Part shown: positions 6,929 through 42,158 of the stretch, in pieces
How positions within the stretch are numbered: the first letter of the stretch is position 1
Layout: every line of letters begins with the position of its first letter
Origin: Candidatus Omnitrophota bacterium
Lineage (GTDB): Bacteria > Omnitrophota > Gorgyraeia > Duberdicusellales > 4484-171
Length of the DNA stretch: 64,000 nt
Assembly (NCBI GenBank): GCA_028692655.1
Contig: JAQUWY010000001.1
Span: 24,116 to 88,115, forward strand
Reading direction: 5' to 3'
Made by a program: the position numbers and the translations under genes
The notes under the pieces: model-generated
What the model saw: the letters and a program-made list of their open reading frames with translations, nothing else
The model's database searches: none
What the model was told of the DNA's origin: nothing

Positions 6929-6985
6929 GGCTGAGAAACCAAAAAACGAAAAAACAGAAAAACAAGAAAACGAAAAGCATAAAGC

Positions 6986-7493: not shown

Positions 7494-8216
7494 ATGGCAA
7501 ATAAGAAAAGAAAAATAATTTATCCTGTCTCCGGGCCCAGCCAGCTGACTACAACTTTTGATGAGCATTTTGCCAGTTCAGACACCTGGAGAGTCTTCAG
7601 AATTATGAGCGAGTTTGTTGACGGGTTTGAAAGCCTTTCCCGGGTAAAACACGGAGTCTGTTTCTTCGGTTCACGCTGCACCCCAAAGAAACACCCCTAT
7701 TACAAATGCGCGTATGAAGCCGCGCGCCTATTAGCCAAAAAAGGTTATAGCATTATTACCGGTGCCGGCGGAGGCATAATGGAGGCTTCCAACAAAGGGG
7801 CTGATGAAGCCGGGGGGGTATCAGTGGGGCTAAATATACTTATACCTCAAAAGCAAAACGCCAACCCCTATGTTAATTATCTTATGGAATTCAGGTATTT
7901 TTTTGTCCGCAAAGTTATGTTTACCAAGAATTCCCATGCTTCAATCGTCTTTCCCGGCGGTTTTGGCACGCTTGATGAGCTTTTTGAGACATTAGCGTTG
8001 GTCCAAACGCACAGAGTGCCCCGGATTCCTGTGATCTTGGTCCATAAAGAATACTGGCAGGGGCTCGTTAATTGGCTCAAAACAAAGCTAATACAGGAAG
8101 GGACTATAGAGAAAAAAGATTTAGATTTGTTTGTGGTAGTTGACACTCCTCAGGAAATTTTATCGGCAGTAGAAAAGTTTTACGGCAAACCTAAAACTAA
8201 AAAAAAGGCAGAATAA
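7494..8216 (+). CDS. LOG family / TIGR00730 Rossmann-fold nucleotide-binding protein
   Basis: ITGAGGGIMEASNKGA and PGGFGTLDELFE motifs, the LOG-family signatures. Confidence 0.8.
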   Translation: MANKKRKIIYPVSGPSQLTTTFDEHFASSDTWRVFRIMSEFVDGFESLSRVKHGVCFFGSRCTPKKHPYYKCAYEAARLLAKKGYSIITGAGGGIMEASNKGADEAGGVSVGLNILIPQKQNANPYVNYLMEFRYFFVRKVMFTKNSHASIVFPGGFGTLDELFETLALVQTHRVPRIPVILVHKEYWQGLVNWLKTKLIQEGTIEKKDLDLFVVVDTPQEILSAVEKFYGKPKTKKKAE

Positions 8217-8515
8217 TGACTGGTCTGATCAGAGTCTGGAAAGAGCTGGATTTACAGGATATCGAAAAAAATCTAATTGTCGTAGGCGAGCTTTCCAGCG
8301 AATGTTTTGCATGCCACAAGATTGGTATTGATTTGCATTCTATACAATGTCCCGGCTGCGGTATATATTTCAAATATGTAGGTTTCAGGCGGAGAGTTCA
8401 GGCGGGATACTTGAAAAAGCTTAAAGACCAGCATCCTCAACTTTTATTCATAGATTTTGAAGATTTCAAAAAATCTCTGGGTAAGCGCGATGCCCGGAAA
8501 TTACTGGATATCTAG
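8216..8515 (+). CDS. hypothetical zinc-ribbon protein
   Basis: 99 aa. CxxH...CPGC cysteine pairs. Start overlaps the stop of the upstream gene (TAATG). Confidence 0.4.
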   Translation: MTGLIRVWKELDLQDIEKNLIVVGELSSECFACHKIGIDLHSIQCPGCGIYFKYVGFRRRVQAGYLKKLKDQHPQLLFIDFEDFKKSLGKRDARKLLDI

Positions 8516-8814: not shown

Positions 8815-9561
8815 ATGAAGAAATTTAAAGATAAGGTAATAGTCGTTACCGGAGGCTCACGGGGTATTGGCAAAGCCTGCTGTGAGGCTTTTGCCAGAGA
8901 AGGTGCCAATATAGTTTTTACTTACAACTCAAGTCAAGAGGCTGCCAAGAGCCTGAAACAGGAAATAGAAACTTCAGGTTCGCAAGTTTTAGCCTTACAG
9001 TTAGATGTGAAAAAATATGACGCCTGCCGCAAATTTGTTGAAAAAGTTTTAGACAAATTCCAGAAAATAGACGTGCTCATCAACAATGCCGGGATCATCA
9101 ACGATAAAGCCCTTATGATGATGAGCGAAAGCGACTGGCTGGATGTTATCAATACCAACCTTAACGGCACCTTTAACGTAACCAAGAACTCTATAATCTC
9201 CTTTATGAAGCAGAGAAAAGGTAATATTATCAATATTTCTTCCTTGAGCGGGATTCTGGGCCTGCCGCGCCAGGCTAATTATGCTGCCTCAAAAGGCGGG
9301 ATGATTTCTTTTACGCGCTCCCTGGCTAGGGAAGTAGCCCCGTTAAATATAAGGGTCAATGCCATAGCCCCCGGTTTCATACAAACCGATATGATAAAGG
9401 GCTTGAGGGAAGATTACGTTAAAGATGTTCTGCCGCAGATCCCCTTAGGGCGCTTCGGTGAGGCAAAAGAAGTGGCTCAAGTTGCTTTATTTTTAGCGGG
9501 AGATGAGTCGGACTATATAACCGGACAAGTCTTAAGGGTTGACGGGGGGTTGGGAATGTGA
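8815..9561 (+). CDS. fabG: 3-oxoacyl-ACP reductase (SDR family)
   Basis: VTGGSRGIGKA Rossmann motif. NNAG. Y-x3-K catalytic pair in YAASKGG. 248 aa. Confidence 0.8.
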   Translation: MKKFKDKVIVVTGGSRGIGKACCEAFAREGANIVFTYNSSQEAAKSLKQEIETSGSQVLALQLDVKKYDACRKFVEKVLDKFQKIDVLINNAGIINDKALMMMSESDWLDVINTNLNGTFNVTKNSIISFMKQRKGNIINISSLSGILGLPRQANYAASKGGMISFTRSLAREVAPLNIRVNAIAPGFIQTDMIKGLREDYVKDVLPQIPLGRFGEAKEVAQVALFLAGDESDYITGQVLRVDGGLGM

Positions 9562-9980
9562 GGCCGCAGATGATCACTGAAGGAAAAGCGCAGATGATCA
9601 CTAATAAGAAAGATTATATTTACAAAGACTTAACTTATAGAGTAATCGGGTGTTTGTATGTTGTGCATAAAGAATTAGGCAACGTCCATAAAGAAATTAT
9701 TTATCATAAAGCTTTGGCGATAGAATTAAAGAGCAAAAATATAGCATTTGTTGACGAAAAATCCATTGATGTAAAATATAAAGGTAAAAAAATAGGAGCA
9801 TACAGGCCTGATTTTATAATAGAGGATAAAGTTATTCTAGAAATCAAGGTTTCACCGGCTATAACCAGAGCTATGCAGGATCAAGTTTATTTTTATGTAA
9901 AGGGAACTAAATACAAGTTGGTTTTATTGGCTAATTTTGGAACAAGCAAAGTTGGTATCAAAAGATTAATTTATTCATAA
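9558..9980 (+). CDS. GxxExxY family protein (PD-(D/E)xK-like), copy 1
   Basis: KDLTYRVIGCLYVVHKELG...GAYRPDFIIEDKVILEIKV matches the TIGR04256-type GxxExxY family. True start is probably internal (MITNKK...). Flanked by CAGATGATCAC / GTGATCATCTG inverted repeats. Confidence 0.7.
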   Translation: MRPQMITEGKAQMITNKKDYIYKDLTYRVIGCLYVVHKELGNVHKEIIYHKALAIELKSKNIAFVDEKSIDVKYKGKKIGAYRPDFIIEDKVILEIKVSPAITRAMQDQVYFYVKGTKYKLVLLANFGTSKVGIKRLIYS

Positions 9981-10030
9981 TCTGCGATTATCTGTAGTAT
10001 TCAATTTGTGATCATCTGTGTAAAAAAGAT

Positions 10031-11257
10031 ATGAAAAAGAAAGCTGTAATAACCGGCATTGGGGTGATTTCGCCTTTAGGTAAGAGCAAGGAAGAGTTTT
10101 GGGAAAATCTGTTTAAAGGTGAATCTGTATTCCATGAGATTGCCTTGTTTGATACTGAAGGCCTTAAGGTTAAAAAAGCCGGTGAGATTTGCAATTTTGA
10201 GCCGAAAGCCATATTGGGAGATAAAGGCCTAATGGATGTTGACCGGGCCAGCCTTATTTTAATGTCGGCGGCAAAACTTGCCCTTGATGATGCGGGTTTT
10301 AAAATTACCCAGGAAAATACTCATTCTACAGGGGTATCAATTGGAACAACTTTTGGAAGCCTTTATAGTATTTCTAAGTTTGACCAAGAGTCGTTAACCG
10401 AAGGCCCTCGATATGTGAACCCTTCTATATTTCCCAGCACAGTCGGTAATTCTCCGGCCAGTCGCCTGGGTATTCGTTACAATATTAAAGGGTTTAATAC
10501 AACCATATCAACCGGAATGTGCGCCGGGCTTGATGCCCTGGATTATTCCCGGGATTTTATTAATTTAGACAGAGCCGATACTGTTGTATCCGGAGGCTTG
10601 GGAGATTTAAACATTCAGACCTTTTTAGGTTTTTATAAACTGGGGTATCTTGCCGGCTTAAAGTATGGCTCAACGGAAGAGATGTGTCCTTTTGATAAGC
10701 GAAGAAACGGGATTATCCTTTCCGAAGGAGCGGTTATTTTTATTATTCAAAACAAAGATGCAGCCAATAGCCAGAAAAAAAGAATTTATGGAGAAATCTT
10801 AGGAACGGGCTCCTGTTTTGAACCGGGTAAGTTTTATAAGTATAGCCGTAAGGGTGAGGGGATGAAAAGGGCTATGGAGCTTGCCTTGGAAGACTCAGGT
10901 ATTAAGGCCTGTGATATAGACTGCATTTTCGCTAATGCCAATTCCACTAAAGACGCTGATTTAATCGAATCAAAAGCCATAAAAGAGGTTTTCGGGGAAA
11001 ACGTTCCTGTCACGGCAGTAAAATCACTCGTAGGAGAAACCTTTAGCGCTTCAGGTACGATGTCAGTTTTGGCAGCACTGGGAGCTTTTGAAAAGCAAAG
11101 CATTCCCGCAATAGCAAATTACCGCGAGAAAGATGAAGATTGCGATTTAGATTATGTAGTCGGAGAATCTCGCAAGAAAAGCATATCAAAAGTAATGATA
11201 AATTCATTCGATCCTAACGGCGCTAGTAGTTGTATGATTGTAGGTAAACCTGTATGA
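10031..11257 (+). CDS. beta-ketoacyl synthase family protein lacking both catalytic His (CLF-like but retaining the active-site Cys)
   Basis: Thiolase-fold KS with active-site Cys in TGMCAGLDA. The HGTGT box is replaced by NANST and the downstream GH by GE. Confidence 0.65.
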   Translation: MKKKAVITGIGVISPLGKSKEEFWENLFKGESVFHEIALFDTEGLKVKKAGEICNFEPKAILGDKGLMDVDRASLILMSAAKLALDDAGFKITQENTHSTGVSIGTTFGSLYSISKFDQESLTEGPRYVNPSIFPSTVGNSPASRLGIRYNIKGFNTTISTGMCAGLDALDYSRDFINLDRADTVVSGGLGDLNIQTFLGFYKLGYLAGLKYGSTEEMCPFDKRRNGIILSEGAVIFIIQNKDAANSQKKRIYGEILGTGSCFEPGKFYKYSRKGEGMKRAMELALEDSGIKACDIDCIFANANSTKDADLIESKAIKEVFGENVPVTAVKSLVGETFSASGTMSVLAALGAFEKQSIPAIANYREKDEDCDLDYVVGESRKKSISKVMINSFDPNGASSCMIVGKPV

Positions 11258-11308
11258 CACGGATGAACACGGATTTTTAAGAAACACGGATATACACGGA
11301 TAGATATT

Positions 11309-11683
11309 GTGGGAAAACTTGAGCAAGAAGATTTGACCTATAGAATAAGAGGCGCGATTTTCGAAGTGTATAATATATTAGGTCCGGGGTTTAAAGAGAT
11401 AATCTACCATAACTCTTTACGAGAAGAATTTGATAAGCGAAAGATTAAATATGCAGAGAAAAAAAGAGTTAAGATTGACTACAAAGGTAAACAAGTAGGT
11501 TTGTATGAACCGGACTTTGTAGTTGAAGGCAAGGTGATTATAGAGACAAAAGCGGTGGAAGTTATGCCTAAGGCGTTTGAAAAACAGTTGTATAATTATC
11601 TGAAAGCTACAGAGTATAAAATCGGAATTCTGGTTAATTTCGGTAGTGAAAAACTGGATATGAGGCGCCGTATCTACGGATAA
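11309..11683 (+). CDS. GxxExxY family protein, copy 2 (GTG start)
   Basis: LTYRIRGAIFEVYNILGPG...GLYEPDFVVEGKVIIETKAV, paralog of 9558..9980. Flanked by CACGGAT x4 upstream and ATCCGTG-type repeats downstream. Confidence 0.7.
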   Translation: MGKLEQEDLTYRIRGAIFEVYNILGPGFKEIIYHNSLREEFDKRKIKYAEKKRVKIDYKGKQVGLYEPDFVVEGKVIIETKAVEVMPKAFEKQLYNYLKATEYKIGILVNFGSEKLDMRRRIYG

Positions 11684-11816
11684 AATTATCCGTGACAGAG
11701 ATGCAGACACACAAGGATTTAAAATGGATGGATATAGATGAATATATTCTGTGTTAATCTGTATATTCAATCCGTGGGAATCCGTGTATGCAATCTGTGT
11801 GTATCCGTGTAATAAA

Positions 11817-12254
11817 ATGAAACAACTAAACATAGAAGAAATCCAGAAAATACTACCCCAGAGGTATCCGTTTTTGCTTATTGATAAAATAATAGAAATT
11901 GAGCCAGGCCAAAGAGTGGTAGCGATTAAGAATGTAAGCAATACCGAGGGGTTTTTTTCGGGGCATTTTCCCGGTAAACCCGTTATGCCAGGAGCTTTGA
12001 TAATTGAGGCAATGGCGCAAGCCTCGATAGTTCTTTACTGGAGTAAATATAAAGATGAATTAGTTAAAACACCTAATTATTATCTTGTTTCGGTCAAGGT
12101 AGATTTAGAAAACCCGGTTTACCCAGGTGATAGTTTAATGATTGAGTCTAAAGCGCTAAAAATTATTCCCAAGGCCGGTTTTGTTGAAGTGAACGCATCT
12201 ATAGACAAAACTATTATTGCCAAAGGCCAGGCTACATTTGCGATAGAAAGATGA
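11817..12254 (+). CDS. fabZ: 3-hydroxyacyl-ACP dehydratase
   Basis: LPQRYPFLLIDKIIE...GHFPGKPVMPGALIIEAMAQ hot-dog fold FabZ signature. ATG at 11817. The track ORF extends upstream through the repeat region. Confidence 0.85.
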   Translation: MKQLNIEEIQKILPQRYPFLLIDKIIEIEPGQRVVAIKNVSNTEGFFSGHFPGKPVMPGALIIEAMAQASIVLYWSKYKDELVKTPNYYLVSVKVDLENPVYPGDSLMIESKALKIIPKAGFVEVNASIDKTIIAKGQATFAIER

Positions 12255-13456
12255 AAAAAAGAATAGTAATAACAGGCTTAGGTTTGGTAACTTCCATAGG
12301 AATTGGTAAAGACGATTTTTGGAAAGCGCTCATTTCCGGAAAGTCCGGGATATCAGAGATAGACTCTTTTGATACTTCAGAACACACTACTCATTTTGGC
12401 GGCCAAGTTAAGAATTTTAAAGCTGAAATGTTTTTAGATAGAAGGAAAATAAAAGCAATGGCTAGAGCGTCACACTTAGCCATTGCTGCGACAAAATTAG
12501 CAATTGAAGATGCCAATATAGGCCTTAAAAAGCGAAACACTAATAAAGTTGCAGTTATGTTTGGGACTACTGGTGGAGAAATCCAGGAAATGGAAAAAAT
12601 GGATATCATCTGGTTAAAACAAGGCAAAGAAGCTGTGGGCTTAAAATCAATAGTTCAATATCCGGTAAATAACATTTCAGCTAATGTAGCTAAGGAATTA
12701 AAACTTAAAGGCTTTAATAGAATGTTTACCACTGCTTGTGCCGCCGGAAATTATGCCCTTGGCTATGGGCTTGACCTTATGAGGTTAGGAAAAACCGACA
12801 TAGCTGTTGTTGGCGGTTCAGATGCTTTTTCTTATCTTTCCTTTACCGGCTTTAATCAGGTTCGGGCGGTTGCGCCTTTAAAGTGCCAGCCTTTTGATAA
12901 AAACAGAAAAGGTATGATTCCCGGGGAAGGCTCAGGCGTTTTAATTTTAGAAACCTTAGAGTCAGCCATGGAGCGAAAAGCCAATATATATGCTGAAGTC
13001 TTAGGTTATGGGCTAAGCTGTGATGCTTACCATATGACACAACCCAATGTTGAAGGGGTAAGCAAATGTATGCAAAAAGCTTTAGATGATTCAGGCATAA
13101 AGCCTGAGGAAGTAGATTATATTTGTGCGCATGGAACAGGAACCCGCCATAATGACAAAGTTGAGTGTGCAGCGATAAAAAACGTCTTTGGAGATAGAAA
13201 AATAGCAGTCAGCTCTATTAAGTCAATGCTTGGCCATTGCATGGGTGCGGCTTCGGCAATCGAGATGGCAGCTTGTTGTTTGGCAATAAAGGAAGGGATT
13301 CTGCCTCCTACGATAAGTTTTGAAACACCTGATTTAGAATGTAATATTGATTGTGTTCCTAATAAAGCAAGAAAACAGAAAGTAAAAGTTGTTCTAAACA
13401 ATGGTTTTGCTTTTGGTGGAAATAACTGTTGTGTAGCAATTAGAAAATTCAATTAA
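12251..13456 (+). CDS. fabF: beta-ketoacyl-ACP synthase II
   Basis: Cys in TTACAAGN. HGTGT present (CAHGTGTRHND). GHCMGAAS. Overlaps fabZ by ATGA. Confidence 0.85.
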   Translation: MKKRIVITGLGLVTSIGIGKDDFWKALISGKSGISEIDSFDTSEHTTHFGGQVKNFKAEMFLDRRKIKAMARASHLAIAATKLAIEDANIGLKKRNTNKVAVMFGTTGGEIQEMEKMDIIWLKQGKEAVGLKSIVQYPVNNISANVAKELKLKGFNRMFTTACAAGNYALGYGLDLMRLGKTDIAVVGGSDAFSYLSFTGFNQVRAVAPLKCQPFDKNRKGMIPGEGSGVLILETLESAMERKANIYAEVLGYGLSCDAYHMTQPNVEGVSKCMQKALDDSGIKPEEVDYICAHGTGTRHNDKVECAAIKNVFGDRKIAVSSIKSMLGHCMGAASAIEMAACCLAIKEGILPPTISFETPDLECNIDCVPNKARKQKVKVVLNNGFAFGGNNCCVAIRKFN

Positions 13457-13467
13457 AGGAGGAGACT

Positions 13468-13734
13468 ATGTCAGAAAATGCGTTTGAAGGATTAGGAAAA
13501 GAAATTCAGCAGTTAATTGCCGAAGTTACTGGAAAAAGTATGGAGGATTTAAGACCCGAAGCTAATTTTTGGGAAGATTTGGGTATTGATTCAATTAAGG
13601 CCATTGAGATAACAGTAGCCATAGAGAGAAAATACAAGATAAGGATAGGCGATGAGCAAATACCACAAATAATGACCGTTGGCAAAGCTGTTGAGGTGGT
13701 TCGACAAGCTCTGGAGAAAAAGAAAAATGCATAA
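13468..13734 (+). CDS. acpP: acyl carrier protein
   Basis: 88 aa. Phosphopantetheine-attachment region LGIDSIKAIE (conserved Ser). SD aaaggagg upstream. Confidence 0.8.
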   Translation: MSENAFEGLGKEIQQLIAEVTGKSMEDLRPEANFWEDLGIDSIKAIEITVAIERKYKIRIGDEQIPQIMTVGKAVEVVRQALEKKKNA

Positions 13735-15025
13735 AAAAAGAATAGTTGTTACTGGAATTGGACCCATGGCTTCAGTAGGTGTGGGGAAGGATTTATTTTG
13801 GAAGGGAATTTTAGATAAGAATATTAATATTAGTTTAGAAAAAACCTGTATAGACTCAGAACTTTGGGATGAGTTTTATCTTCATAAAATAAATAATTTT
13901 TCCATAAACGACTTCGGCATCGATAAAGAGAGATTAAATGACATAAAAGAATGGAAAGATGGAGGAAGTGTTTTAGAATTAGATTATCTTATTGCCCTGG
14001 TCAAACTAGCATTAGACGACAGCAAACTCAATTATAATGCTAGCAATAATGACATTGGTTTAGTCCTAGCTCATGAGAATTTAGGCATAATGCAGTTTGC
14101 TTATCAAATAAGTGATTTAGCATACGAAGGCCTGATTGATAAAAAAAGATCTGATCTATCTAAGAGAGATTTTTTTGATGAGTTTTACCGTAAATTTTTA
14201 AAGATTGGGTACGATATTCAAACTTTTCCTGATTTATTTCATATCGCAAGGGTTTTTAATATTCGTAATTATTCTTTATTCATAAATAATGCCTGTGCTT
14301 CAGGGCTTTATGCGTTAGAGGCAGCGAGCAATGTAATAAATAGTGGCCAGGCTAAAGCTATGGTTATCGCTGTCTCAGACTGTCCAGAAATATATAAATA
14401 TATTTGGTTTAAAAGTTTGGGGATATATTCTGTTGATGGAATATGCCGGCCATTTTGTAAGAATAGCAACGGCCTTGTTTTTGGCGACGGGGGTGTGGGC
14501 ATGGTGGTTGAAGATTTAGAGCATGCCAGAGAAAGAGGTGCGGAGATTTATGCCGAATACTTAGGGGGAGGTTTTGATTTGGAAGGTTGGAAAATTACCG
14601 TTCCTCAGCTAGGCAGTGATTCTTATCAAAAAGCAATGCAGAAAGCATTCGCGCAAAGTAATGTTAATAAGGATGAAATTGATTTGCTTTGTCCGCATGG
14701 GGTAGGCTCACAAGTCATAGATTATTATGAAGCTAAGGCTATAACAGATATATTTGGTAAAAATCCGCAAAAACCCTTAATGACTACATTTAAGCCTTAT
14801 GTTGGGCATAATTTAGGAGGTAGCGCGCTTTTAGAAACTGCGATACTTTTACTTTCCTTAAAAAATAATGTTATTCCGCCTACTTTAAATTATGATGAGC
14901 CTGACCCTAAATTTAATATTTCTTTGGTTAAAGAAAAAAAAGAAGTAGAGCTAAAAACTGTTATGAAAGCGTGCTGTGCTTTTGCAGGGTTTAACGCGGC
15001 GGCGATATTTAGAAAAATTGACTGA
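13727..15025 (+). CDS. beta-ketoacyl synthase family protein (atypical, with N-terminal insertion)
   Basis: Cys in NNACASGLYA. His in CPHGVGS and in VGHNLGGSA. Overlaps the ACP stop. About 430 aa. Confidence 0.7.
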   Translation: MHKKRIVVTGIGPMASVGVGKDLFWKGILDKNINISLEKTCIDSELWDEFYLHKINNFSINDFGIDKERLNDIKEWKDGGSVLELDYLIALVKLALDDSKLNYNASNNDIGLVLAHENLGIMQFAYQISDLAYEGLIDKKRSDLSKRDFFDEFYRKFLKIGYDIQTFPDLFHIARVFNIRNYSLFINNACASGLYALEAASNVINSGQAKAMVIAVSDCPEIYKYIWFKSLGIYSVDGICRPFCKNSNGLVFGDGGVGMVVEDLEHARERGAEIYAEYLGGGFDLEGWKITVPQLGSDSYQKAMQKAFAQSNVNKDEIDLLCPHGVGSQVIDYYEAKAITDIFGKNPQKPLMTTFKPYVGHNLGGSALLETAILLLSLKNNVIPPTLNYDEPDPKFNISLVKEKKEVELKTVMKACCAFAGFNAAAIFRKID

Positions 15026-15027
15026 CT

Positions 15028-16578
15028 ATGAAAAAAACCGACTATGATGTAATTATTATTGGCGCGGGAATTGGTGGTTTGGTTTCTGGCAATATTTTAG
15101 CTAAAAATGGATTAAGGGTTTTATTATTGGAGAAAAATAACGTACCGGGCGGTTCAGTTTCTACATTTTATAAAGATGGTTACCCCATTGACATAACTCA
15201 TTCTTTTTGTGGAATGAAGCAAGGTTCGTTTATCAGGAAGATTTTTGATTATCTAGATATTTATAGAAAGTTAGAACTTATTGAGTTAAAAAAAGCTTTT
15301 ATATATATATCTGAGCATCGAAATGAACCAATCTTTTGTTATACAGATACAGAACGATACAAAAAAGAACTTAAATCCCATTTTCCATATGAAAGGAAAA
15401 GTATAGATGGATTTTTTAGAGAAATTGAATTAATCTGGAATGAAGAGATTCTAAAAAGTTATTACAACCCTTCCTTTTATCAGTTATTAAGTTACCCTTT
15501 TCTATTTCCTCGTCTTTGTAAATACAGAAATTATACTTTCGAAAGGTTTCTTAGTATTTTTACTGGTTCTAAAGAATTGAAAGAAGTGCTGTCTGTGGGC
15601 TGGCCTTATTTAGGTTTAGACAGATTTTCGGTTTCTGCTTTATACATGGTGTGTTTAATAATGGCCTATTGGAAAGAAGGCAGTTTTTACGTTAAGGGAG
15701 GGGTTGGAAAAATTGCTGAAGCATTAGCTTGTAATTTTAAAAATATGGGAGGCTATCTTCTTTACAATGTAGATATTGAATCTATAATAGTGAATGACAA
15801 AAGAACAGCGTTGGGCGTAAGGGATAAAAATAATGAAGTTTATCGTGGAGAAAAGATAGTCTCAAATGTTGATACTAAAAAAACATTTTTTGAATTAGTA
15901 GGACGTACATTTCTATCAAAAAAAACTTTGAGAAAGATTCAAAAGTCGATAGCATCTTGTTCTCTTATTCAAGTTCATATAGCGGCGGAGGCTCAAATTA
16001 AGGAAGATTACCTATCCGCAGGCTCAATAGTATTACCGTTTCGTATCGATTTAGAAGAAACCATAAAGGCTTTATTAGGTGTTGACACAAGCCCCTTTGG
16101 TAATTCTTCAATGATGGTAAGCATTAATTCTCTGGATTGTTTTTCGAATGATAGTAAAGAAAATGAATATATGTTCAATGTGGCATGGTTCCCCGCACAT
16201 TATAGTTTATGGAAAAAACTTATGGTTTTTTACGGGAGGAGGAAATATGAGATTTTGAAAGAAGAAATTGCTCAAAAAGTCATCAAGATATTACAGAAAT
16301 CAAAAATCATTGGTAGATTTAAATTCAGCAATGTATTGACGCCTCTTTCTGTAGAGAATTGGCTTAATGCATCTGAGGGAGCAATCTATGATTTTGCCGC
16401 TATTCCTCAACAAATGCTTCTTTCACGTTTCAAACATACAACATGTATAGATAAACTGTATCTTGTAGGTGCAAAAACATTTCCTGGCGCCGGTATCGCC
16501 GGCGCTTTTTGTTCTGCCGTCTGTCTTTCAGATATTCTTTTAAAAGGAGGCCTTTCCAAGGGCAAATTTACGTTATAA
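15028..16578 (+). CDS. FAD-dependent oxidoreductase, phytoene-desaturase (CrtI/COG1233) family, paralog 1
   Basis: N-terminal dinucleotide fold DVIIIGAGIGGLVSGNILAKNGLRVLLLEKNNVPGG. 516 aa. C-terminal GAGIAGA motif. Confidence 0.7.
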   Translation: MKKTDYDVIIIGAGIGGLVSGNILAKNGLRVLLLEKNNVPGGSVSTFYKDGYPIDITHSFCGMKQGSFIRKIFDYLDIYRKLELIELKKAFIYISEHRNEPIFCYTDTERYKKELKSHFPYERKSIDGFFREIELIWNEEILKSYYNPSFYQLLSYPFLFPRLCKYRNYTFERFLSIFTGSKELKEVLSVGWPYLGLDRFSVSALYMVCLIMAYWKEGSFYVKGGVGKIAEALACNFKNMGGYLLYNVDIESIIVNDKRTALGVRDKNNEVYRGEKIVSNVDTKKTFFELVGRTFLSKKTLRKIQKSIASCSLIQVHIAAEAQIKEDYLSAGSIVLPFRIDLEETIKALLGVDTSPFGNSSMMVSINSLDCFSNDSKENEYMFNVAWFPAHYSLWKKLMVFYGRRKYEILKEEIAQKVIKILQKSKIIGRFKFSNVLTPLSVENWLNASEGAIYDFAAIPQQMLLSRFKHTTCIDKLYLVGAKTFPGAGIAGAFCSAVCLSDILLKGGLSKGKFTL

Positions 16579-16588
16579 TAACAATATT

Positions 16589-18022
16589 ATGAAAAAAAAG
16601 CGTGATTACGATGTTGCGATTATTGGTTCTGGTATAGGGGGCTTAGTTTGCGGTTGCTATTTGGCAAAAGCGGGCTTGAAGACAGCAATAATTGAAAAAC
16701 ATCATTCTCCGGGAGGGTATTGCACTTCTTTTAAACGAAGAGGGTATAGATTTGATACATCTGTGCACTATATAGGGGGGATAAAAAAAGGAGCGCTAAG
16801 TGAAATATTGATGAATTTAGAGATGGAAACCTCATTAAAGTTTCATCAAGATGATCCCTCAGACGGCATTTTTTTACCGGATACGTCAACTTATATTAGA
16901 GCCAATTCTCAGGATACAATTAAAGAATTTAAGAAGAGTTTTCCTTCGGAGAGCAAAGACATTGAAAGGTTTTTTAGATTCATCATGCAAAATGATATCG
17001 CATCTATTTATAGAAAAACGATAGAAATTACTTTAGAAGAATTACTAAATGATTTTTTTAGTGATACGAATCTTCGAGCAACCATAGGAATTCCTTTTTT
17101 AGGAAATATGGGTTTGCCGCCCGGTAAAATTTCTGCTTTTGCTGCCATTGTTTTCTTTCGGGAATTTCTATTAGACCCAGGATATTATCCTGTTGGAGGG
17201 ATGCAAGCTTTTGCTGACTGTTTAGCTAACAGATTTAAAGGCTATGGTGGCGATTTAGTTTTGTCGAAAGAAATTTCCAAAATAATATTAAATAACAATG
17301 TTGCCGAAGGGGTAGTGACTTCATCTGGAAAAGAAATCAAGTCCAAATTCGTAGTTTCTAATATCGATGCTACGCGAACTTTCAAACATCTTATTAAGTC
17401 TAAAACCAAAGAGGCGCTAGTCGTAGACAAGATGGTGCCATCTAATTCTATTTTTGCTGTTTATGTAGGCCTCAAAAGAACTTTTAAAGATAGCTTTAAA
17501 AATCTTTATGATACTTGGCTATTCAAAAATTATGATTTAAATGATAGCTATAAATATTTGACAAAGAACATAGCTGAAGGCCAAATTTCTGGAGTCATGG
17601 TATCATTTCCTTCCTTCAAAGACCTTTCTTTTACAAAGACATCTAAGTTTACTGCCGAAATTTTTACAATGGCCCCATATGTGAGTGAAAATTTTTGGGC
17701 TATCAATCAAGAATTAGTAACTGAGGCGGTTTTAAACTTTGTAGACGAAAATATTCCAGGTTTCAAAAAATACGTAGATTTTAAGTTAGTCGCGACTCCT
17801 CACACGTATTATAGGTATACTATGAATAGGGAAGGAGCTGCTTTTGGTTGGGCGTCAATCATAAACCAGATAAAATCTTCTTTGTTGCCCCAAGTTTCGT
17901 CAGTCAAGAATTTATTTGTAGTTGGGCATTGGTGCACTATGGGAACGGGGCAAGGTGGTGTGTCAACCGTGGCTTTAGCTGGGAAAAAGGTTTACGAAAG
18001 GATAACTAACTTGTTACTATGA
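16589..18022 (+). CDS. FAD-dependent oxidoreductase, phytoene-desaturase (CrtI/COG1233) family, paralog 2
   Basis: DVAIIGSGIGGLVCGCYLAKAGLKTAIIEKHHSPGG. 477 aa. Tandem to paralog 1. Confidence 0.7.
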   Translation: MKKKRDYDVAIIGSGIGGLVCGCYLAKAGLKTAIIEKHHSPGGYCTSFKRRGYRFDTSVHYIGGIKKGALSEILMNLEMETSLKFHQDDPSDGIFLPDTSTYIRANSQDTIKEFKKSFPSESKDIERFFRFIMQNDIASIYRKTIEITLEELLNDFFSDTNLRATIGIPFLGNMGLPPGKISAFAAIVFFREFLLDPGYYPVGGMQAFADCLANRFKGYGGDLVLSKEISKIILNNNVAEGVVTSSGKEIKSKFVVSNIDATRTFKHLIKSKTKEALVVDKMVPSNSIFAVYVGLKRTFKDSFKNLYDTWLFKNYDLNDSYKYLTKNIAEGQISGVMVSFPSFKDLSFTKTSKFTAEIFTMAPYVSENFWAINQELVTEAVLNFVDENIPGFKKYVDFKLVATPHTYYRYTMNREGAAFGWASIINQIKSSLLPQVSSVKNLFVVGHWCTMGTGQGGVSTVALAGKKVYERITNLLL

Positions 18023-20184
18023 ACTTTTTTACGTTTTCTTCTATATTTTCAACCTTTTCAACTTTCGCTATAGCTTTATTACTTTTCGTTAAAGTAAAAA
18101 ATAAAAGTCCAAGCTATAATTTTGCCTACACTTCTTTAGCTTCAGGAATTTGGACCTTGGGAGCGTGGGGATTTTCGACAACTACTTCGTATGATACAGC
18201 GTTGATATGGATCAAGGTTGCTCACATAGGAACAATTTTAACCCCTGCTTTCTTTTTCCATTTCGTTTCGGGTCTTACGAAAAAATATAATAAATTCCTA
18301 ATTTTGTTAAATTATTGTCTTGCAGCGCTGTTTGTTTTTTATACTTTTTTTTATAAAGATTTTATTCATATCAAATATGTTTTTGGTCAATTCTATTTTC
18401 CCATCTATGTTAATCCAGCTTCTGTATTATTTTATATAAGTGTTTACGGAATATTTCTCCCGTATGCGTTTTTTCTATTAATAACTTTTTTTAGAACTAC
18501 CAGGGGCATTTTACGAAATCAGCTTAAATATTTTATAATTGGTCTTATAGTAGCGTGGTCAGGTCCTGAAGGGTTATTCTTGTTTGCCTTAGGGGTTCCG
18601 ATTTATCCTTGTTCGAATATTCTTATAGGTGTCTATCCTTTAATATTTGCTTACGCTATCCTTAAATACCATCTAATGGATATCCGAATTTTTATCTCTC
18701 GGGCGGCGGCGTTTCTCATCAGTTATCCTTTCTTTTTAGGAGTTCCCTTTATATTCGCTTATCGAATGGAGCCGGTTCTGTTTCCTTTATTGGGAATGAA
18801 TTGGTGGCTTGTGCCTACAAGCTTAATTGTTTTCTTTGCCACCCTTGCCCCTTTGGCCTACGGGCAGATAAGAAGCAAAATGGAAAATGCCTTTTTGGCT
18901 GAACAAAAAAGATACCAGAAACTTTTACTTCAAGCTGCAAGCGGTATGGCGACAGAACATGATCTAAATCGTCTGGCAAAGCTGATTGTTTATATTGTAA
19001 AGAAGGCCGTAAGAATTGATTTTGCGGCTATTTTCCTTGATGATAAATCCAACGAGATTTATCGGCTCAAGGCTTATCGTGATAGAGGAAGCAAAATATC
19101 AAAGGATATGGTTTTTCTTTATGAACATCCCCTTGTGCAATATTTAAAGAAGCAAAAAGAACCTGTGCTTTATGAAGAACTGCCTCCTGAGTTAAGAGAA
19201 TCTTTAGGTGAATTCTCCAAAACCAGCCTTATTGTTCCTTCCGGTATTGAAGATAATCTGCTGGGCTTTGTGTTTTTTGGTGAAAAACTTAATCGCCAAC
19301 CTTATACTAACGATGATATTGATGTGTTTAAAATACTTTCCCATCAGGCGGCTTTGGCTATAGAAAATTGTCTTTTTATGGAGGAATCGCGCCAGGCTCA
19401 GGAGAAAATATTTGCCGCTGAAAAACTGGCTTCAATCGGAGGCATCGCTGACGGTGTGGCTCATCAGATTAAAAACCGTTTGAATCAATTTTCTGTTGCC
19501 AGCGGAGAGCTTCGCTATGAAATAAAAGATTTTGCCCAGAAGCATTCCGAGCTGATATTGAAGAATCCTGACCTTAAAAAAACCTTTGATTATTTGGCCG
19601 AAATCGCTACATCTTTTCTTAATAATGTCAAAAGGACTGACGGCATTGTTAAGGGAATACTTAATTTTGCAAGGGTGGAGGAGAAAGAGACTTTTTTCAG
19701 CAAGTTTTCTTTAAAAGAGGTGATAGATGTTTCTACTGAACTTCTGCAGATAAAGCATGAAATTTCCCAGGTACCTCTAAAGCTTAATCTAGGTTCTTCA
19801 GATATTATTTATGGTGTTAAAGCCCAAATGACCGAAGTCGTGTATAATATGCTCGACAACGCCTATGAGGCTATACAGGATAAAGTTATGCGTCTTGAGC
19901 CGGAAGAAAAACTGAAATTTTCTCCTGAAATTAAATTACGCTTGCTTCACGAGCAATCAATAGACGTTATAGAAATCTCTGATAATGGTATTGGAGTCAG
20001 CAAAGAAAATGAGCGCAAAATATTCGCTCCGTTTTTTACCACAAAATCTTCATACAAATCAGGCACAGGCATTGGAATGTATGTTGTAAAGCGTATGGTG
20101 GAGGAAAATCATAAAGGAAAAGTTTGGTTTGAATCTACGCATATGAAAGGAATCAAGTTTTTTGTGGAATTGCCACGGAAATAA
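18019..20184 (+). CDS. sensor histidine kinase with large multi-TM N-terminal domain and GAF-like region
   Basis: About 300 aa of hydrophobic helices. H-box GVAHQIKNRLN. HATPase_c motifs DNGIGV and GTGIGMYVV. Overlaps the upstream gene stop. Confidence 0.8.
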   Translation: MNFFTFSSIFSTFSTFAIALLLFVKVKNKSPSYNFAYTSLASGIWTLGAWGFSTTTSYDTALIWIKVAHIGTILTPAFFFHFVSGLTKKYNKFLILLNYCLAALFVFYTFFYKDFIHIKYVFGQFYFPIYVNPASVLFYISVYGIFLPYAFFLLITFFRTTRGILRNQLKYFIIGLIVAWSGPEGLFLFALGVPIYPCSNILIGVYPLIFAYAILKYHLMDIRIFISRAAAFLISYPFFLGVPFIFAYRMEPVLFPLLGMNWWLVPTSLIVFFATLAPLAYGQIRSKMENAFLAEQKRYQKLLLQAASGMATEHDLNRLAKLIVYIVKKAVRIDFAAIFLDDKSNEIYRLKAYRDRGSKISKDMVFLYEHPLVQYLKKQKEPVLYEELPPELRESLGEFSKTSLIVPSGIEDNLLGFVFFGEKLNRQPYTNDDIDVFKILSHQAALAIENCLFMEESRQAQEKIFAAEKLASIGGIADGVAHQIKNRLNQFSVASGELRYEIKDFAQKHSELILKNPDLKKTFDYLAEIATSFLNNVKRTDGIVKGILNFARVEEKETFFSKFSLKEVIDVSTELLQIKHEISQVPLKLNLGSSDIIYGVKAQMTEVVYNMLDNAYEAIQDKVMRLEPEEKLKFSPEIKLRLLHEQSIDVIEISDNGIGVSKENERKIFAPFFTTKSSYKSGTGIGMYVVKRMVEENHKGKVWFESTHMKGIKFFVELPRK

Positions 20185-20268: not shown

Positions 20269-20700
20269 ATGGAAGATAAAAAAATAAGAAGCTTTCACGA
20301 TTTAGATGTATATCAAAATTCATATGGAGCCATGCTGATAGTTTATAAAGAAATAATGCCTAAATTACCCAAAGAAGAGGAATATGACCTTAAAGATCAG
20401 CTTAGAAGGTCAACTAAAGCTATTCCAAGATTGATAGCCGAAGGGCATTCTAAAAGACATCAAAAGAGGGGATTTCAGAAATATATAGACGATTCTTTAG
20501 CAGAGTCTAACGAGACAATTGTTTCACTAAGTCAGGCTCGCGATTTGTACGCAAATTACGTAGATACTAAATTATGCAATGAACTGATTGATAGATACGA
20601 TAAAATAAGCAGGCAGTTATATAATTTAGCTTTGGCTTGGGATAAATTTAATAGGCGCAGCCGTAAAACGACAAACGATTCGAGCTACACAACCGTATAG
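20269..20700 (+). CDS. four-helix-bundle protein (23S rRNA IVS protein family), copy 2
   Basis: FHDLDVYQNSY...LRRSTKAIPRLIAEGHSKRH...AESNETI. ATG at 20269. The track ORF starts at 20221. Flanked by ggttgcgtagctgg / cgagctacacaacc inverted repeats. Confidence 0.75.
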   Translation: MEDKKIRSFHDLDVYQNSYGAMLIVYKEIMPKLPKEEEYDLKDQLRRSTKAIPRLIAEGHSKRHQKRGFQKYIDDSLAESNETIVSLSQARDLYANYVDTKLCNELIDRYDKISRQLYNLALAWDKFNRRSRKTTNDSSYTTV

Positions 20701-20766: not shown

Positions 20767-21135
20767 ATGAGCAAAGTATTAGTAATTGATGATGAAGTGG
20801 AAGTGGTAGATTTTCTATTTAATTTTCTCAGGAGATTCAAAATTCAGGTTGAGAAAGCTGTGAGCGGTAAAGGGGCTCTTGAGGCTTTTATGAAGGTCAA
20901 GCCCGATTGGGTATTTTTGGACATCAAAATGCCGGATATAGACGGTTTCGAAGTTTTAAAAGCGATAAAATCTATGTCGCCGGAAGTCAACGTTATAATG
21001 ATAACCGGAAAGGAAGATAAAGAATCCCAGGATAAGGCCAGGAAGCTTGGAGCATTTGATTACATAATTAAGCCTTTGGATTTAGAGCAGCTACATAAGA
21101 AAATTCAGGTTAATATACTGGATAAAAATAATTAA
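20767..21135 (+). CDS. response regulator receiver domain protein (CheY-like, stand-alone)
   Basis: VLVIDDE. Phospho-acceptor in LDIKMPDIDGF. Conserved K in IIKP. 122 aa. Confidence 0.85.
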   Translation: MSKVLVIDDEVEVVDFLFNFLRRFKIQVEKAVSGKGALEAFMKVKPDWVFLDIKMPDIDGFEVLKAIKSMSPEVNVIMITGKEDKESQDKARKLGAFDYIIKPLDLEQLHKKIQVNILDKNN

Positions 21136-21189: not shown

Positions 21190-22371
21190 ATGAAAGCACA
21201 TCCCGACTATAGGAAAGACTTGGAGATTGCCGCGAAGCAGATGATTCTTATCCACCGTGTGGATACTTTGATTAAACTGATTCTGCGCACTATAGTCAGG
21301 TCACTTAAGGTTAAACATGCCGGGCTTCTTTTATATGATAAAGATAGAGATGAATATGTGGTTAAGGTGTCCCGCGGTAAGGGTGGATTCAAGATTCCTT
21401 CCGGATTTACCAAAATAAATAAAGATAACGCTTTAATAAGATATTTTACTGAAGATAGCCTGCGTATTTTCGGCAAGGATGTTTTACTTCTGCGCCGGTT
21501 GAATGCTTTTTTAAGCTCAAAAAAGACCAAAAAGGATAAAAACTTAAGAACTTTTCTTGAAAGTATTAAGCTGCAGTTTTCTTTATATAACGCAAAGGCT
21601 TGCATTCCGGGATTTTTTAGGGATAAACTTATTTGTATTTTTTTTCTTGGCCAAAAGTTAGACGGTAAAGATTTCAACCGGGACGAGTTAGGATTTCTTT
21701 CGGTTCTAAGCTCAGACGCAGTAATGGCTATCCAAAATGCTTGGTTTTTCCAGGATTTGAATAACCAGCTTGGTATAAATAAAAAGCTCTTTTTACAGAC
21801 TGTGATGGCGCTTGCTTCAGCAATTGAAGCCAAAGATAAATATACAATAGGCCACACAGAAAGAGTATCAAAATATTCTTTGATAGTTGCCCAGGAAATT
21901 AAAGCAATGAAGAAAGTTCCTTCTAAGGACAGGGAAGATTTTCTGGAAAATTTAAGGATAGCGTCTTTGCTTCACGACATAGGAAAAATCGGCGTCAGGG
22001 AAGATGTGCTTAACAAAAATGGGTTTCTTGATCAAGAAGAACGCCGCGAAATCGAAAAACACCCAACGATAGGGTTTTCGATATTGAAACAAGTTGATGA
22101 ATTTCATGAGCCTATTTTAGGGGTGAAATACCACCATGAGCGTTATGATGGCAAAGGATATCCCGAAGGCATAAAGGGAAAGAAAATTCCTCTTATTGCC
22201 CAGATAATTGCCGTAGCAGATACCTTTGATGCGATGACCTCTGATAGGCCATATCGTAAGGGTTTATCCAAGGAAGAAGCAGCTAGGGTAATTGAGGAAA
22301 ATAAAGGCAAGCAATTTTCTCCTTTGATCGTGGATGCGTTCTTAAGGGTGTATAAGGCAGGGAAGCTGTAA
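21190..22371 (+). CDS. GAF domain / HD-GYP phosphohydrolase
   Basis: HD motif LLHDIGKIGV. HD-GYP signature HHERYDGKGYP. Confidence 0.8.
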   Translation: MKAHPDYRKDLEIAAKQMILIHRVDTLIKLILRTIVRSLKVKHAGLLLYDKDRDEYVVKVSRGKGGFKIPSGFTKINKDNALIRYFTEDSLRIFGKDVLLLRRLNAFLSSKKTKKDKNLRTFLESIKLQFSLYNAKACIPGFFRDKLICIFFLGQKLDGKDFNRDELGFLSVLSSDAVMAIQNAWFFQDLNNQLGINKKLFLQTVMALASAIEAKDKYTIGHTERVSKYSLIVAQEIKAMKKVPSKDREDFLENLRIASLLHDIGKIGVREDVLNKNGFLDQEERREIEKHPTIGFSILKQVDEFHEPILGVKYHHERYDGKGYPEGIKGKKIPLIAQIIAVADTFDAMTSDRPYRKGLSKEEAARVIEENKGKQFSPLIVDAFLRVYKAGKL

Positions 22372-42154: not shown

Positions 42155-42158
42155 AATA

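Follow-up and report, generated by a model that had tools for sequence, protein, structure and literature searches.

A 64-kb stretch of DNA from a Candidatus Omnitrophota bacterium, referred to here as the window, carries a tight array of genes resembling a type II fatty-acid synthase (FAS) at 8815-18022, which closes with genes for two flavoenzymes dependent on flavin adenine dinucleotide (FAD), Crt1 and Crt2. Five of these genes are, with high confidence, the closest relatives of the anammox Cluster I genes KustE3603-3607, a statement of homology based on sequence comparison. Cluster I, an unproven candidate for ladderane biosynthesis, comprises amxACP, amxFabZ, amxFabF2, amxFabFmut, a phytoene dehydrogenase (PDH) homologue and a B12 radical-SAM enzyme (Kuste3608). 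A first-pass annotation of the same DNA had referred to a comparable association in other uncultured lineages, which can now be identified with this candidate cluster, KustE3603-3608 (PMC2649909, PMC10139942, bioRxiv 10.64898/2026.05.19.726425). The interpretation favoured here, held with moderate confidence, is that the array is the Omnitrophota counterpart of Cluster I: an acyl assembly line with a dedicated acyl carrier protein (ACP), which would produce a specialised unsaturated chain without oxygen and in which Crt2 would stand in place of an enoyl reductase (ER).

Gene array

The window has a G+C content of ∼38%, with nearly all genes on the + strand, and is the whole sequence basis for statements on gene absence in the host. 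The same-strand array at 8815-18022 continues unbroken to 22371 with intergenic gaps of -8 to +133 nt, and 8815-22371 is probably one operon. Domains were assigned with Pfam and NCBIfam profiles, applying the curated NCBIfam cutoffs, and three ketosynthase (KS) homologues are designated KSa, KSb and KSc.

8815..9561, + strand: FabG-type 3-oxoacyl-ACP reductase, the ketoreductase (KR) step (TIGR01830, 310.3 bits against a cutoff of 297.75; adh_short_C2, E=2.9e-69)
9558..9980, + strand: GxxExxY / PD-(D/E)XK_3 gene between fabG and the dead KS (PF13366, E=1.5e-32; TIGR04256)
10031..11257, + strand: KSa, KS homologue with a dead triad, of the amxFabFmut / Kuste3606 type
11309..11683, + strand: second GxxExxY / PD-(D/E)XK_3 gene (PF13366, E=3.8e-36)
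11817..12254, + strand: amx-type FabZ, 3-hydroxyacyl-ACP dehydratase (DH), with amxFabZ structures as best PDB matches
12251..13456, + strand: KSb, FabF-like active KS of the amxFabF2 / Kuste3605 type
13468..13734, + strand: ACP (PP-binding, E=1.2e-12)
13727..15025, + strand: KSc, third KS with an intact triad (true start 13727)
15028..16578, + strand: Crt1, FAD protein of the amine-oxidase/CrtI superfamily (carot_isom 147.6 bits and crtI_fam 139.1 bits, both below cutoff)
16589..18022, + strand: Crt2, phytoene-dehydrogenase-like FAD protein placed in the Kuste3607 clade by BLASTP identity and a neighbour-joining tree
18019..20184, + strand: HisKA_7TM-GAF-HATPase sensor histidine kinase, 721 aa (PF16927, GAF_3, HATPase_c)
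20269..20700, + strand: 23S_rRNA_IVP (four-helix-bundle) gene between kinase and receiver (PF05635, E=3.1e-20)
20767..21135, + strand: stand-alone receiver, a CheY-like response regulator with no output domain (Response_reg, E=1.4e-29)
21190..22371, + strand: protein with a GAF-like N-terminus and an HD-GYP domain, a predicted phosphodiesterase of cyclic di-GMP (c-di-GMP) (HD_5, E=7.2e-32; HHERYDGKGYP)

The start of FabZ is set at 11817, as the GTG at 11751 chosen by the open reading frame (ORF) finder lies upstream of the start used by homologues. The tight same-strand arrangement and the strong Pfam and NCBIfam matches bear out the cassette described in the first-pass annotation, whose list of core genes also stands, although it had overlooked the two inserted GxxExxY genes. 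Near-identical copies of the region were found in contig JAQUSC010000061.1 of GCA_028715335.1 (99.95%) and in a Logan contig (100%), and Crt2 is 100% identical to a protein from a Candidatus Omnitrophica metagenome-assembled genome.

A ketosynthase pair and a third ketosynthase

KSa had been described as a KS lacking His, which is correct and understates the loss, as all three catalytic residues are gone: Met occupies the column of the catalytic Cys, Asn that of the first His and Glu that of the second. Its best PDB match is 9s5h_C with 335 bits, followed by a match of 220 bits, and its residues F134 and V138 correspond to the tunnel residues Phe135 and Val139 of amxFabFmut. Loss of the triad together with retention of the Phe/Val pair was observed in 120 of the 120 closest KSa homologues among the matches listed. 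BLASTP identity amounts to 42% with the second KS of a Brocadiales cluster (L005) and 49% with the first KS of a cluster from a hydrothermal-vent Nitrospirae (L007), and KSa is thus predicted to be a catalytically dead, chain-length-factor (CLF)-like KS.

KSb retains the Cys-His-His triad and is presumed from its sequence to be the active partner of KSa, with 50% identity to the first KS of the Brocadiales cluster and 56% to the second KS of the Nitrospirae cluster (BLASTP). Its best PDB match is 9s5h_B (475.6 bits), followed by Iga11 (6kxd_A, 343 bits) and ordinary FabFs (335 and 331 bits). With 431 bits it falls below the FabF equivalog cutoff of 493.75 (TIGR03150) and passes the subfamily cutoff of NF005589. 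The entries 9S5H and 9S5I appear to be crystal structures of the amxFabF2/amxFabFmut heterodimer, a KS/CLF-like pair that decarboxylates malonyl-amxACP, and hence primes itself, and that prefers C6-C8 probes (bioRxiv 10.64898/2026.05.19.726425). In the same preprint of May 2026, Phe135 and Val139 of the dead subunit amxFabFmut were found to shape the tunnel (bioRxiv 10.64898/2026.05.19.726425).

The third ketosynthase, KSc, has intact Cys-His-His and Lys residues and differs from FabF-type KSs by insertions of ∼8 and ∼16 residues in the helix-loop-helix/pocket and interface region and by a remodelled N-terminal lobe. Clear orthologues of KSc occur only in Omnitrophota-like loci, with no counterpart in the Brocadiales or Nitrospirae cluster.

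A dedicated dehydratase and carrier protein

FabG passes the cutoff of TIGR01830 and heads the array in all full-length Omnitrophota loci. FabZ finds its best PDB matches in the anammox amxFabZ structures 7QV0, 8AYB, 8AYI and 8AYC (124 bits, against ∼100 for canonical FabZ), and is 45% identical to the Brocadiales FabZ by BLASTP; the Nitrospirae cluster has no FabZ. The catalytic His and Glu are present, Ile takes the position of amxFabZ Ile69 (Gly in canonical FabZ), and Glu96 and Ile115, at the two ACP-docking positions, are non-basic, in agreement with the published amxFabZ signature (PMC10139942). All three positions were compared in the window and seven relatives; the Omnitrophota orthologues show Ile or Thr at the first and a non-basic residue at each docking position. 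With 140.2 bits FabZ remains below the TIGR01750 cutoff of 155.15 and passes that of NF000582. The anammox enzyme amxFabZ prefers chains of up to C8 and accepts only amxACP (PMC10139942).

The window ACP fails all ACP equivalog cutoffs (56.9-59.7 bits against 70-84) and is 32% identical to the Brocadiales and 41% to the Nitrospirae carrier (BLASTP). An E[KR][KR][YF]K motif is common to S. brodae amxACP and every module-linked ACP, in a comparison covering both Omnitrophota architectures described below, Nitrospirae, Brocadiales and locus L109. The net charge of recognition helix II is 0 in the window ACP and 0 to -3 in all module-linked ACPs, against -10 in the Aquifex ACP and -11 in the E. 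coli ACP (the E. coli sequence being entered by hand); the published hallmark of amxACP is an unusually long 3-10 helix. The neutral ACP helix complements the loss of basic residues on FabZ and therefore argues, at the level of sequence, for a pathway kept apart from the housekeeping FAS, as established experimentally for amxFabZ and amxACP.

That the operon is itself the housekeeping fatty-acid synthase of the organism is accordingly very unlikely, although FabG, KSb and FabZ pass the cutoffs of TIGR01830, NF005589 and NF000582, respectively, no further fab genes lie in the window, and the cluster is very common in Omnitrophota. Against this explanation stand the sub-cutoff ACP with its neutral helix II, an obligate dead KS partner, the scores of KSb and FabZ below the FabF and FabZ equivalog cutoffs, and the presence in anammox bacteria of a homologous set besides the canonical FAS genes (PMC2649909). 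FabD, FabH, ER and PlsX are missing from the window, and none was found in the flanks of the related loci L001, L003 and L110. The ACP, the dead KS and the missing FabD, FabH and ER agree with the earlier description of the cassette as FAS/PKS-like, of type II and distinct from the housekeeping kind.

A highly reducing type II polyketide synthase (PKS) offers a different explanation for the same enzymes: the KS/CLF pair would iterate with KR, DH and ACP to give a conjugated polyene, serving as a pigment or membrane antioxidant, which the CrtI-like enzymes would isomerise or desaturate. The enzyme set is exactly that of KS/CLF, KR, DH and ACP with no ER, the second-best PDB match of KSb is the polyene ketosynthase Iga11, precomputed Pfam assignments place the orthologous FabZs near the ApeP/ApeI dehydratases, and CrtI-like genes adjoin KS genes in Bacteroidota loci possibly of flexirubin or aryl-polyene (APE) type. 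The Iga11 score is no better than those of ordinary FabFs, however, and the neighbourhood contains no starter ligase or TAL, thioesterase, LolA/MMPL export, acyltransferase or glycosyltransferase genes; in addition, the anammox homologues readily take saturated C6-C8 substrates and Ile69 narrows the FabZ tunnel. A polyene product is consequently regarded as unlikely, although it deserves consideration.

The flavoenzymes Crt1 and Crt2

Both flavoenzymes have an N-terminal FAD motif and amine-oxidase domain matches. The best named model is the carotenoid isomerase carot_isom (TIGR02730; Crt1 147.6 and Crt2 128.2 bits against a cutoff of 586.9), followed by crtI_fam (TIGR02734; 139.1 and 118.4 bits against 238.1) and CrtD (TIGR02733; 114 and 98 bits against 549.7), scores of roughly half the curated cutoffs or less. 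An AF2 model of Crt2 (pLDDT 94.7) retrieved 4REP (TM-score 0.81), 4DGK and 5MOG as best Foldseek matches; 4REP is a gamma-carotenoid desaturase, and the further structural matches are CrtI and plant PDS. Crt2 is thus modelled with a CrtI-type three-domain FAD fold, without membership of the CrtI family.

Crt2 is 40% identical to the flavoenzyme of the Nitrospirae cluster and 32% to that of the Brocadiales cluster. In a flavoenzyme tree, built by neighbour-joining only and carrying no support values, Crt2 groups with these two cluster enzymes, Crt1 forms a separate clade confined to Omnitrophota, and the cyanobacterial carotenoid isomerases form a clade of their own that excludes both. A C-terminal GHW motif is distinctive for the Crt2 clade; Crt1 has the usual G-x-x-x-x-P-G-x-G form. 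Relatives of Crt2 number 932 at E <= 1e-20, and Crt1 has ∼37 homologues at 38% identity or more, the named ones all from Omnitrophota, the next matches of Crt1 reaching no more than 31%. Among the 932 Crt2 relatives, and likewise among the close homologues of Crt1 and KSa, every sequence bearing a taxon name is from Omnitrophota, with the exception of one from Elusimicrobiota and one from an unclassified 'bacterium'. Crt1 is found in only a subset of loci, with no counterpart in the Brocadiales or Nitrospirae cluster.

The first-pass designation of the pair as CrtI-family desaturases could not be maintained: all family thresholds were failed, both proteins lie outside the carotenoid-isomerase clade, and the anammox homologues did not substitute for CrtI (PMC4790861). 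The wider proposition that these are carotenoid enzymes (CrtI, CrtD or CrtISO) and chance neighbours of fab genes can draw on the identity of the best named hidden Markov models (carot_isom, crtI_fam and CrtD) and on structural matches to carotenoid desaturases, but is effectively refuted by scores far under the cutoffs, by the placement of Crt1 and Crt2 outside the cyanobacterial CrtISO clade, and by a linkage to KS and ACP genes that is conserved across three phyla. The carotenoid context genes crtB, crtE and a cyclase were all missing from the window, and Kuste3607 and Kuste3336 failed to replace CrtI in vivo, producing no lycopene (PMC4790861).

The CrtI/PDS fold and the FAD motifs would also suit true oxidative desaturases acting on a long saturated or mono-unsaturated chain to give a polyunsaturated fatty acid, as proposed by Rattray et al. 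(PMC2649909), and two or more tandem flavoenzymes in some lineages recall stepwise carotenoid desaturation. The hosts belong to lineages regarded as anaerobic, however, and the surrounding genes encode no partner linked to quinone or oxygen. Short chains are preferred by the homologues of KS/CLF and FabZ, the named model closest to the flavoenzymes describes an isomerase and not a desaturase, and polyunsaturated fatty acids were detected neither in anammox bacteria nor upon heterologous expression (PMC10139942, PMC4790861). Only a slight probability is therefore given to oxidative desaturation. A literature search on the assigned function of CrtI-like genes in flexirubin/APE clusters, or on Omnitrophota lipids, returned nothing decisive.

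Conservation across loci

The order fabG-KSa-FabZ-KSb-ACP-KSc-Crt1-Crt2-kinase recurs in L001/L002 (GCA_018830005.1) and in L003/L004, on a 1.87-Mb contig, where a receiver and an HD-GYP gene follow the kinase. A metagenome scan seeded with KSc returned 19 loci, the array being kept in every locus long enough to judge, and the dead KS is represented by at least 120 protein clusters at 90% identity. The anticipated linkage between KS/ACP genes and CrtI-like genes in relatives was thus recovered, with the arrangement kept in every long Omnitrophota locus examined; the linked flavoenzymes fall outside the carotenoid clade, the opposite of the unlinked carotenoid genes that had been named as the alternative. 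Locus L092 has only Crt2, L093 has two Crt2-type genes, and L094 and L095 show the order ACP-Crt2-KSc, variations from which it follows that Crt2 is universal and Crt1 accessory. The pair as such is hence not the conserved feature that had been supposed, with Crt1 being an Omnitrophota accessory.

A second Omnitrophota architecture (L008:237-6384 and L110:2099-13211) runs HTH_17-KS-thioester reductase (NAD_binding_4)-FabG-ACP-nitroreductase-KS-Crt2-kinase-receiver-receiver-HD-GYP, and shares with the first Crt2 and the signalling genes; its composition suggests that the product is released as an aldehyde or alcohol. In L110, genes for a CDP-alcohol phosphatidyltransferase and PgpA adjoin this cluster. 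Beyond Omnitrophota, the Brocadiales locus L005 (ACP-FabZ-KS-KS-flavoenzyme-B12 radical SAM) has the layout of anammox Cluster I, KustE3603-3608, and the Nitrospirae locus L007 a smaller KS-KS-ACP-flavoenzyme set. By BLASTP, KSa, KSb, ACP and Crt2 pair off one to one with proteins of both clusters, and FabZ does so with the Brocadiales cluster.

Several further arrangements were noted. Locus L109:3022-10125 encodes a PaaK/F390-like ligase, a GDSL hydrolase, ACP, FabZ, KS, a short KS, a flavoenzyme and FabG, that is, the anammox gene order minus the radical-SAM gene, with PagL and polysaccharide deacetylase genes adjoining. In one Omnitrophota lineage, the HTH_17-fabG start of the operon is directly preceded by genes for a lipoate-protein ligase-like protein and a small protein with a lipoyl/biotinyl domain (L001:3467-4802), an arrangement seen once; by analogy, a link between the operon and octanoyl-ACP or lipoate is conceivable, given the C8 preference of the homologous KS/CLF.

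A scan of genomes with the Crt2 alignment was discarded, as the generic N-terminal FAD motif made most of its 80 loci unrelated CrtI-superfamily genes and only L008 was directly useful; according to the same scan, CrtI-like genes are often neighbours of KS genes in Bacteroidota, and the same holds for some Deltaproteobacteria and Halobacteriovoraceae. Genes for an MGDG synthase, an LpxL-like protein and a GT2 protein downstream of L003 were considered as a conserved off-loading route and rejected, as they occur only in that lineage; the glycolipid genes downstream of L003 and L092 are lineage-specific. A second ACP at the end of L093 was likewise rejected as a sign of canonical FAS, being flanked by receivers with no fab genes.

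Signalling genes beside the pathway

The start of the kinase overlaps the end of Crt2 by 4 nt, and lies within a few nucleotides of the Crt2 stop in several lineages. Hydrophobic segments in the first ∼285 residues correspond to ∼8-9 helices by hydropathy, in place of the 20 transmembrane segments first assigned, and the Pfam architecture is HisKA_7TM, GAF and HATPase_c; this architecture is PrsK-like, but the protein is no PrsK member (87 bits against 300). The kinase gene comes directly after the last biosynthetic gene, or a short distance downstream of it (∼1 kb in L098), in the window itself and in L001, L003, L008, L092, L093, L094, L095, L098 and L110. The receiver is kept after the kinase in L003, L092, L093, L094, L098 and L110; the HD-GYP protein is 48% identical to its orthologue in L003 and is kept in L092, L094, L098 and L110. 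Coupling of the lipid pathway to a kinase/HD-GYP unit is conserved in Omnitrophota, across about ten loci representing fewer independent lineages. The kinase, initially listed as a neighbour, is consequently a member of a conserved unit together with the receiver and the HD-GYP protein.

In the NCBI copy of the region (L107:5050-7211, equivalent to 18023-20184 of the window) the annotated kinase has 502 aa and lacks the membrane part. An ORF of 721 aa, free of interruptions and including HisKA_7TM, is present in both the window and the Logan copy, and the NCBI copy differs by 4 mismatches in 8.3 kb. Outside Omnitrophota, a dCache-HAMP-PAS-HD-GYP protein is encoded upstream of the Brocadiales cluster (L005:3928-6511), and the Nitrospirae cluster has a PilZ-methyltransferase fusion upstream (L007:5770-7188) and a PAS kinase-receiver downstream (11448-13607).

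This arrangement raises the question of a signal synthase with its receptor, in which the pathway would yield an unsaturated, fatty-acid-derived signal of short or medium length, such as a cis-enoic acid or the corresponding aldehyde or alcohol, analogous to the cis-2-enoic family of diffusible signal factors (DSF). The translationally coupled kinase would sense this signal and relay it through the receiver and the HD-GYP protein to c-di-GMP, as RpfC and RpfG do. Crt2, the multi-transmembrane GAF kinase, the receiver and the HD-GYP protein are constant in both Omnitrophota architectures, and the biosynthetic genes upstream of them differ. Chains of up to C8 are favoured by the homologues of KS/CLF and FabZ, and the tunnel residues are conserved in the window proteins. 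Release enzymes, and not glycerolipid acyltransferases, are encoded in variant clusters, with a thioester reductase in L008 and L110 and a GDSL hydrolase in L109, and c-di-GMP or sensor proteins flank the module in Brocadiales and Nitrospirae. Several observations reduce this to a distinctly unlikely explanation: the window has no RpfF-type crotonase, thioesterase or exporter; the third KS suggests further elongation; receiver and HD-GYP are separate proteins in the window; signalling genes are abundant anyway (three more 7TM kinases in L001, and further GGDEF/HD-GYP and PilZ genes in the window); and the anammox cluster has been described as highly expressed, which suits a bulk lipid (PMC10139942). 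If true, it would amount to a new quorum- or membrane-signalling system typical of Omnitrophota, and the FAS-like half of the anammox 'ladderane' cluster would descend from such a module.

Proposed pathway

Under the preferred interpretation of an Omnitrophota counterpart of Cluster I, KSb and KSa would prime themselves by decarboxylation of malonyl-ACP, as amxFabF2 and amxFabFmut do, and would build a short or medium 2-enoyl-ACP together with FabG and FabZ. Crt2 would then act, independently of oxygen, on an enoyl- or otherwise unsaturated ACP intermediate, most likely moving or isomerising the double bond in a redox-neutral manner akin to CrtISO; saturation is less likely. Three observations suggest this specific role of Crt2 on the FabZ product, which is put forward tentatively: no variant of the cluster encodes an ER, Crt2 is the only universally co-inherited extra enzyme, and the ACP seems incompatible with the canonical partners. 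Elongation of the modified chain would fall to KSc, whose pocket is remodelled, and Crt1, where present, could contribute a second tailoring step. The product would be a specialised unsaturated acyl chain, most probably destined for a membrane lipid, and the kinase, receiver and HD-GYP protein would couple the pathway to membrane or c-di-GMP signalling.

A ladderane is not expected as the product, given that no B12 radical-SAM enzyme is encoded: a tblastn search with the Brocadiales protein gave no match in the window or in any Omnitrophota locus, and the Pfam annotation of the window holds no Radical_SAM domain. Genes for an ER, an acyltransferase or a radical-SAM enzyme were found neither in the window nor in the Omnitrophota loci, and no thioesterase gene was found in the window. 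The named hosts of the module are Omnitrophota, Brocadiales and vent Nitrospirae, lineages regarded as anaerobes or sampled from anoxic settings, with which oxygen-free chemistry therefore fits.

A number of points weigh against this interpretation. FabZ is 41.7% identical to amxFabZ and, at 37.2%, hardly less so to E. coli FabZ (the latter sequence being entered by hand), and the ACP scores 47.7 bits to amxACP against 48.4 bits to the canonical Aquifex ACP by phmmer. Heterologous expression of the anammox genes gave no new fatty acids (PMC4790861), and the reactions ascribed to the enzymes of this cluster, and to Crt2-type clades in general, are predicted ones. The role proposed for Crt2 builds on the absence of an ER from 64 kb and on family resemblance, and a housekeeping ER may act in trans. 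The window variant, moreover, has no off-loading enzyme, and the link to the kinase and HD-GYP protein may be regulatory only.

Inserted genes and other features of the window

Both GxxExxY genes look like small insertion cassettes tolerated by the operon and standing outside the pathway, because relatives lack them at the same junctions; the first is missing at this position in L001, L003, L092, L093 and L095, and the second is likewise missing in relatives. Short inverted repeats, different for the two genes, bracket each of them. In the span of the first (9558-10018), CAGATGATCAC occurs twice upstream and as its reverse complement downstream at 10008-10018, with four matches in the window against 0.46 expected by chance. 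In the span of the second (11259-11810), ACACGGAT is repeated four times on the upstream side and ATCCGTG three to four times on the downstream side. The 23S_rRNA_IVP gene, called with 143 aa in both the NCBI and the Logan copy, is also outside the pathway, as L003 and L092 lack it between kinase and receiver. Four 23S_rRNA_IVP genes lie among unrelated genes of the window (6986-7369, 20269-20700, 23022-23342 and 33835-34200), a scatter that fits a genome with many small inserted genes.

Tandem arrays with a 7-8 nt period fill intergenic regions (22371-22651, 30191-30737, 6936-6976 and 7376-7447), with the units ATAGTCC, GAAAAACC, CCACAGT, AAAAACTA and AAATCCC, above all upstream of both tRNA-Ser genes; they give rise to spurious minus-strand ORFs and to apparent inverted repeats around the operon. 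Inverted repeats at 7382-7452 and 22482-22556, considered as ends of an element, were rejected as copies of A/T-rich arrays of 8-nt period that recur in other intergenic regions. A scan for promoters and terminators yielded counts no higher than in shuffled sequence, an Rfam search of the fabG leader gave nothing credible, and the 99-aa CxxC protein encoded upstream (8216-8515) has no significant similarity to the Zn-ribbon protein upstream of the Brocadiales cluster.

The operon neighbourhood is rich in toxin-antitoxin and signalling genes, with a Fic protein, a nucleotidyltransferase/HEPN pair and a zeta-toxin-like kinase encoded at 4313-6430 and 26007-29457, and further c-di-GMP genes for a GGDEF-HD-GYP protein (26907-28466) and a PilZ protein (29119-29457). 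An IS200-like Y1 transposase fused to a DnaA-C-type HTH (40519-41517), five ORFs without a Pfam match (41750-44904), and an N6/N4 DNA methylase with an MjaI-like restriction enzyme (45424-47345) may together form a mobile or defence island at 40519-47345. A tRNA-Thr(CGU) gene at ∼37500-37806, among the very few minus-strand features of the window, has its anticodon loop split by a 232-nt group I intron (RF00028, 82.7 bits) and was overlooked by the default tRNA scan.

Comparison with known systems

A fatty-acid pathway beside a multi-transmembrane sensor kinase with HD-GYP output is reminiscent of the Rpf/DSF system (RpfF, RpfC and RpfG), from which the window differs in having no RpfF-type crotonase (no ECH/crotonase domain in the operon) and in encoding the receiver and HD-GYP as separate proteins. 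DesK/DesR, controlling lipid unsaturation, similarly combines a multi-transmembrane kinase with a lipid pathway, but no DesR-like DNA-binding regulator is present here, and the window kinase differs from both systems in its HisKA_7TM and GAF input and PrsK-like architecture.

Crt2 shares its fold and N-terminal FAD-binding motif with CrtI, CrtISO and CrtD, and is distinguished from them by its C-terminal GHW motif, its sub-cutoff scores and the lack of a carotenoid gene context. The mechanism proposed here has the same logic as the oxygen-independent branch points to unsaturated fatty acids provided by FabA/FabB, FabM and the Helicobacter flavoenzyme FabX, at which a short or medium enoyl-ACP has its double bond shifted, so escaping reduction, and a dedicated KS elongates the chain; FabX demonstrates that a flavoenzyme is able to carry out such repositioning. 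Crt2 is unrelated to these enzymes in sequence, belonging to the CrtI/amine-oxidase superfamily and not to the hot-dog fold or the FMN/nitronate-monooxygenase type, and the window pathway uses its own ACP and KS/CLF pair.

Highly reducing type II PKSs (ishigamide Iga10-16 and aryl-polyene Ape) resemble the operon in combining a KS/CLF pair with stand-alone KR, DH and ACP and no ER, and in leaving control of chain length to an inactive KS homologue. They differ in that neither the operon of the window nor its flanks contain starter (ligase, TAL), thioesterase, export or lipid-anchoring genes, and to our knowledge CrtI-superfamily flavoenzymes are not part of the Iga or core Ape sets.

The closest resemblance is to anammox Cluster I, of which five of the six gene types are present in the window (active KS, dead CLF-like KS, FabZ, ACP and a Kuste3607-clade flavoenzyme), KSa bearing the Asn/Glu substitutions of amxFabFmut. 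In addition to these, the window has FabG, a further active KS (the third KS gene) whose pocket is remodelled and, as is often the case, a second flavoenzyme; the gene order is different, a kinase/receiver/HD-GYP module follows directly downstream in Omnitrophota, and the Omnitrophota host is not an anammox bacterium, such that ladderanes are not expected. Related clusters have been reported in Deltaproteobacteria by Rattray et al. (PMC2649909), and 'ladderane-type' clusters had already been picked out, though not analysed, by antiSMASH surveys of Omnitrophota and further phyla (PMC9902471). Structural papers describe Cluster I as exclusive to ladderane producers (PMC10139942, bioRxiv 10.64898/2026.05.19.726425); its FAS-like part is not exclusive to them. 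No description was found in the literature of a radical-SAM-free Omnitrophota variant that shows amx-type signatures and an obligatory kinase/receiver/HD-GYP coupling and that includes a third KS and, optionally, a second flavoenzyme.

Ladderane biosynthesis has been unsolved for more than 20 years, with anammox bacteria not being genetically manipulable and the radical-SAM enzyme not producible. The module of KS/CLF, narrow-tunnel FabZ, charge-neutralised ACP and PDH-like flavoenzyme is older and widespread, with smaller versions in Nitrospirae, Brocadiales and other anaerobes, and its conserved coupling to a kinase and HD-GYP protein occurs in Omnitrophota, a poorly understood and largely uncultured phylum. 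As a natural module without the radical-SAM step, it separates the generic from the ladderane-specific part of the candidate pathway, and the smaller, radical-SAM-free gene set represents a simpler system for heterologous expression, which could show the role of the flavoenzyme.

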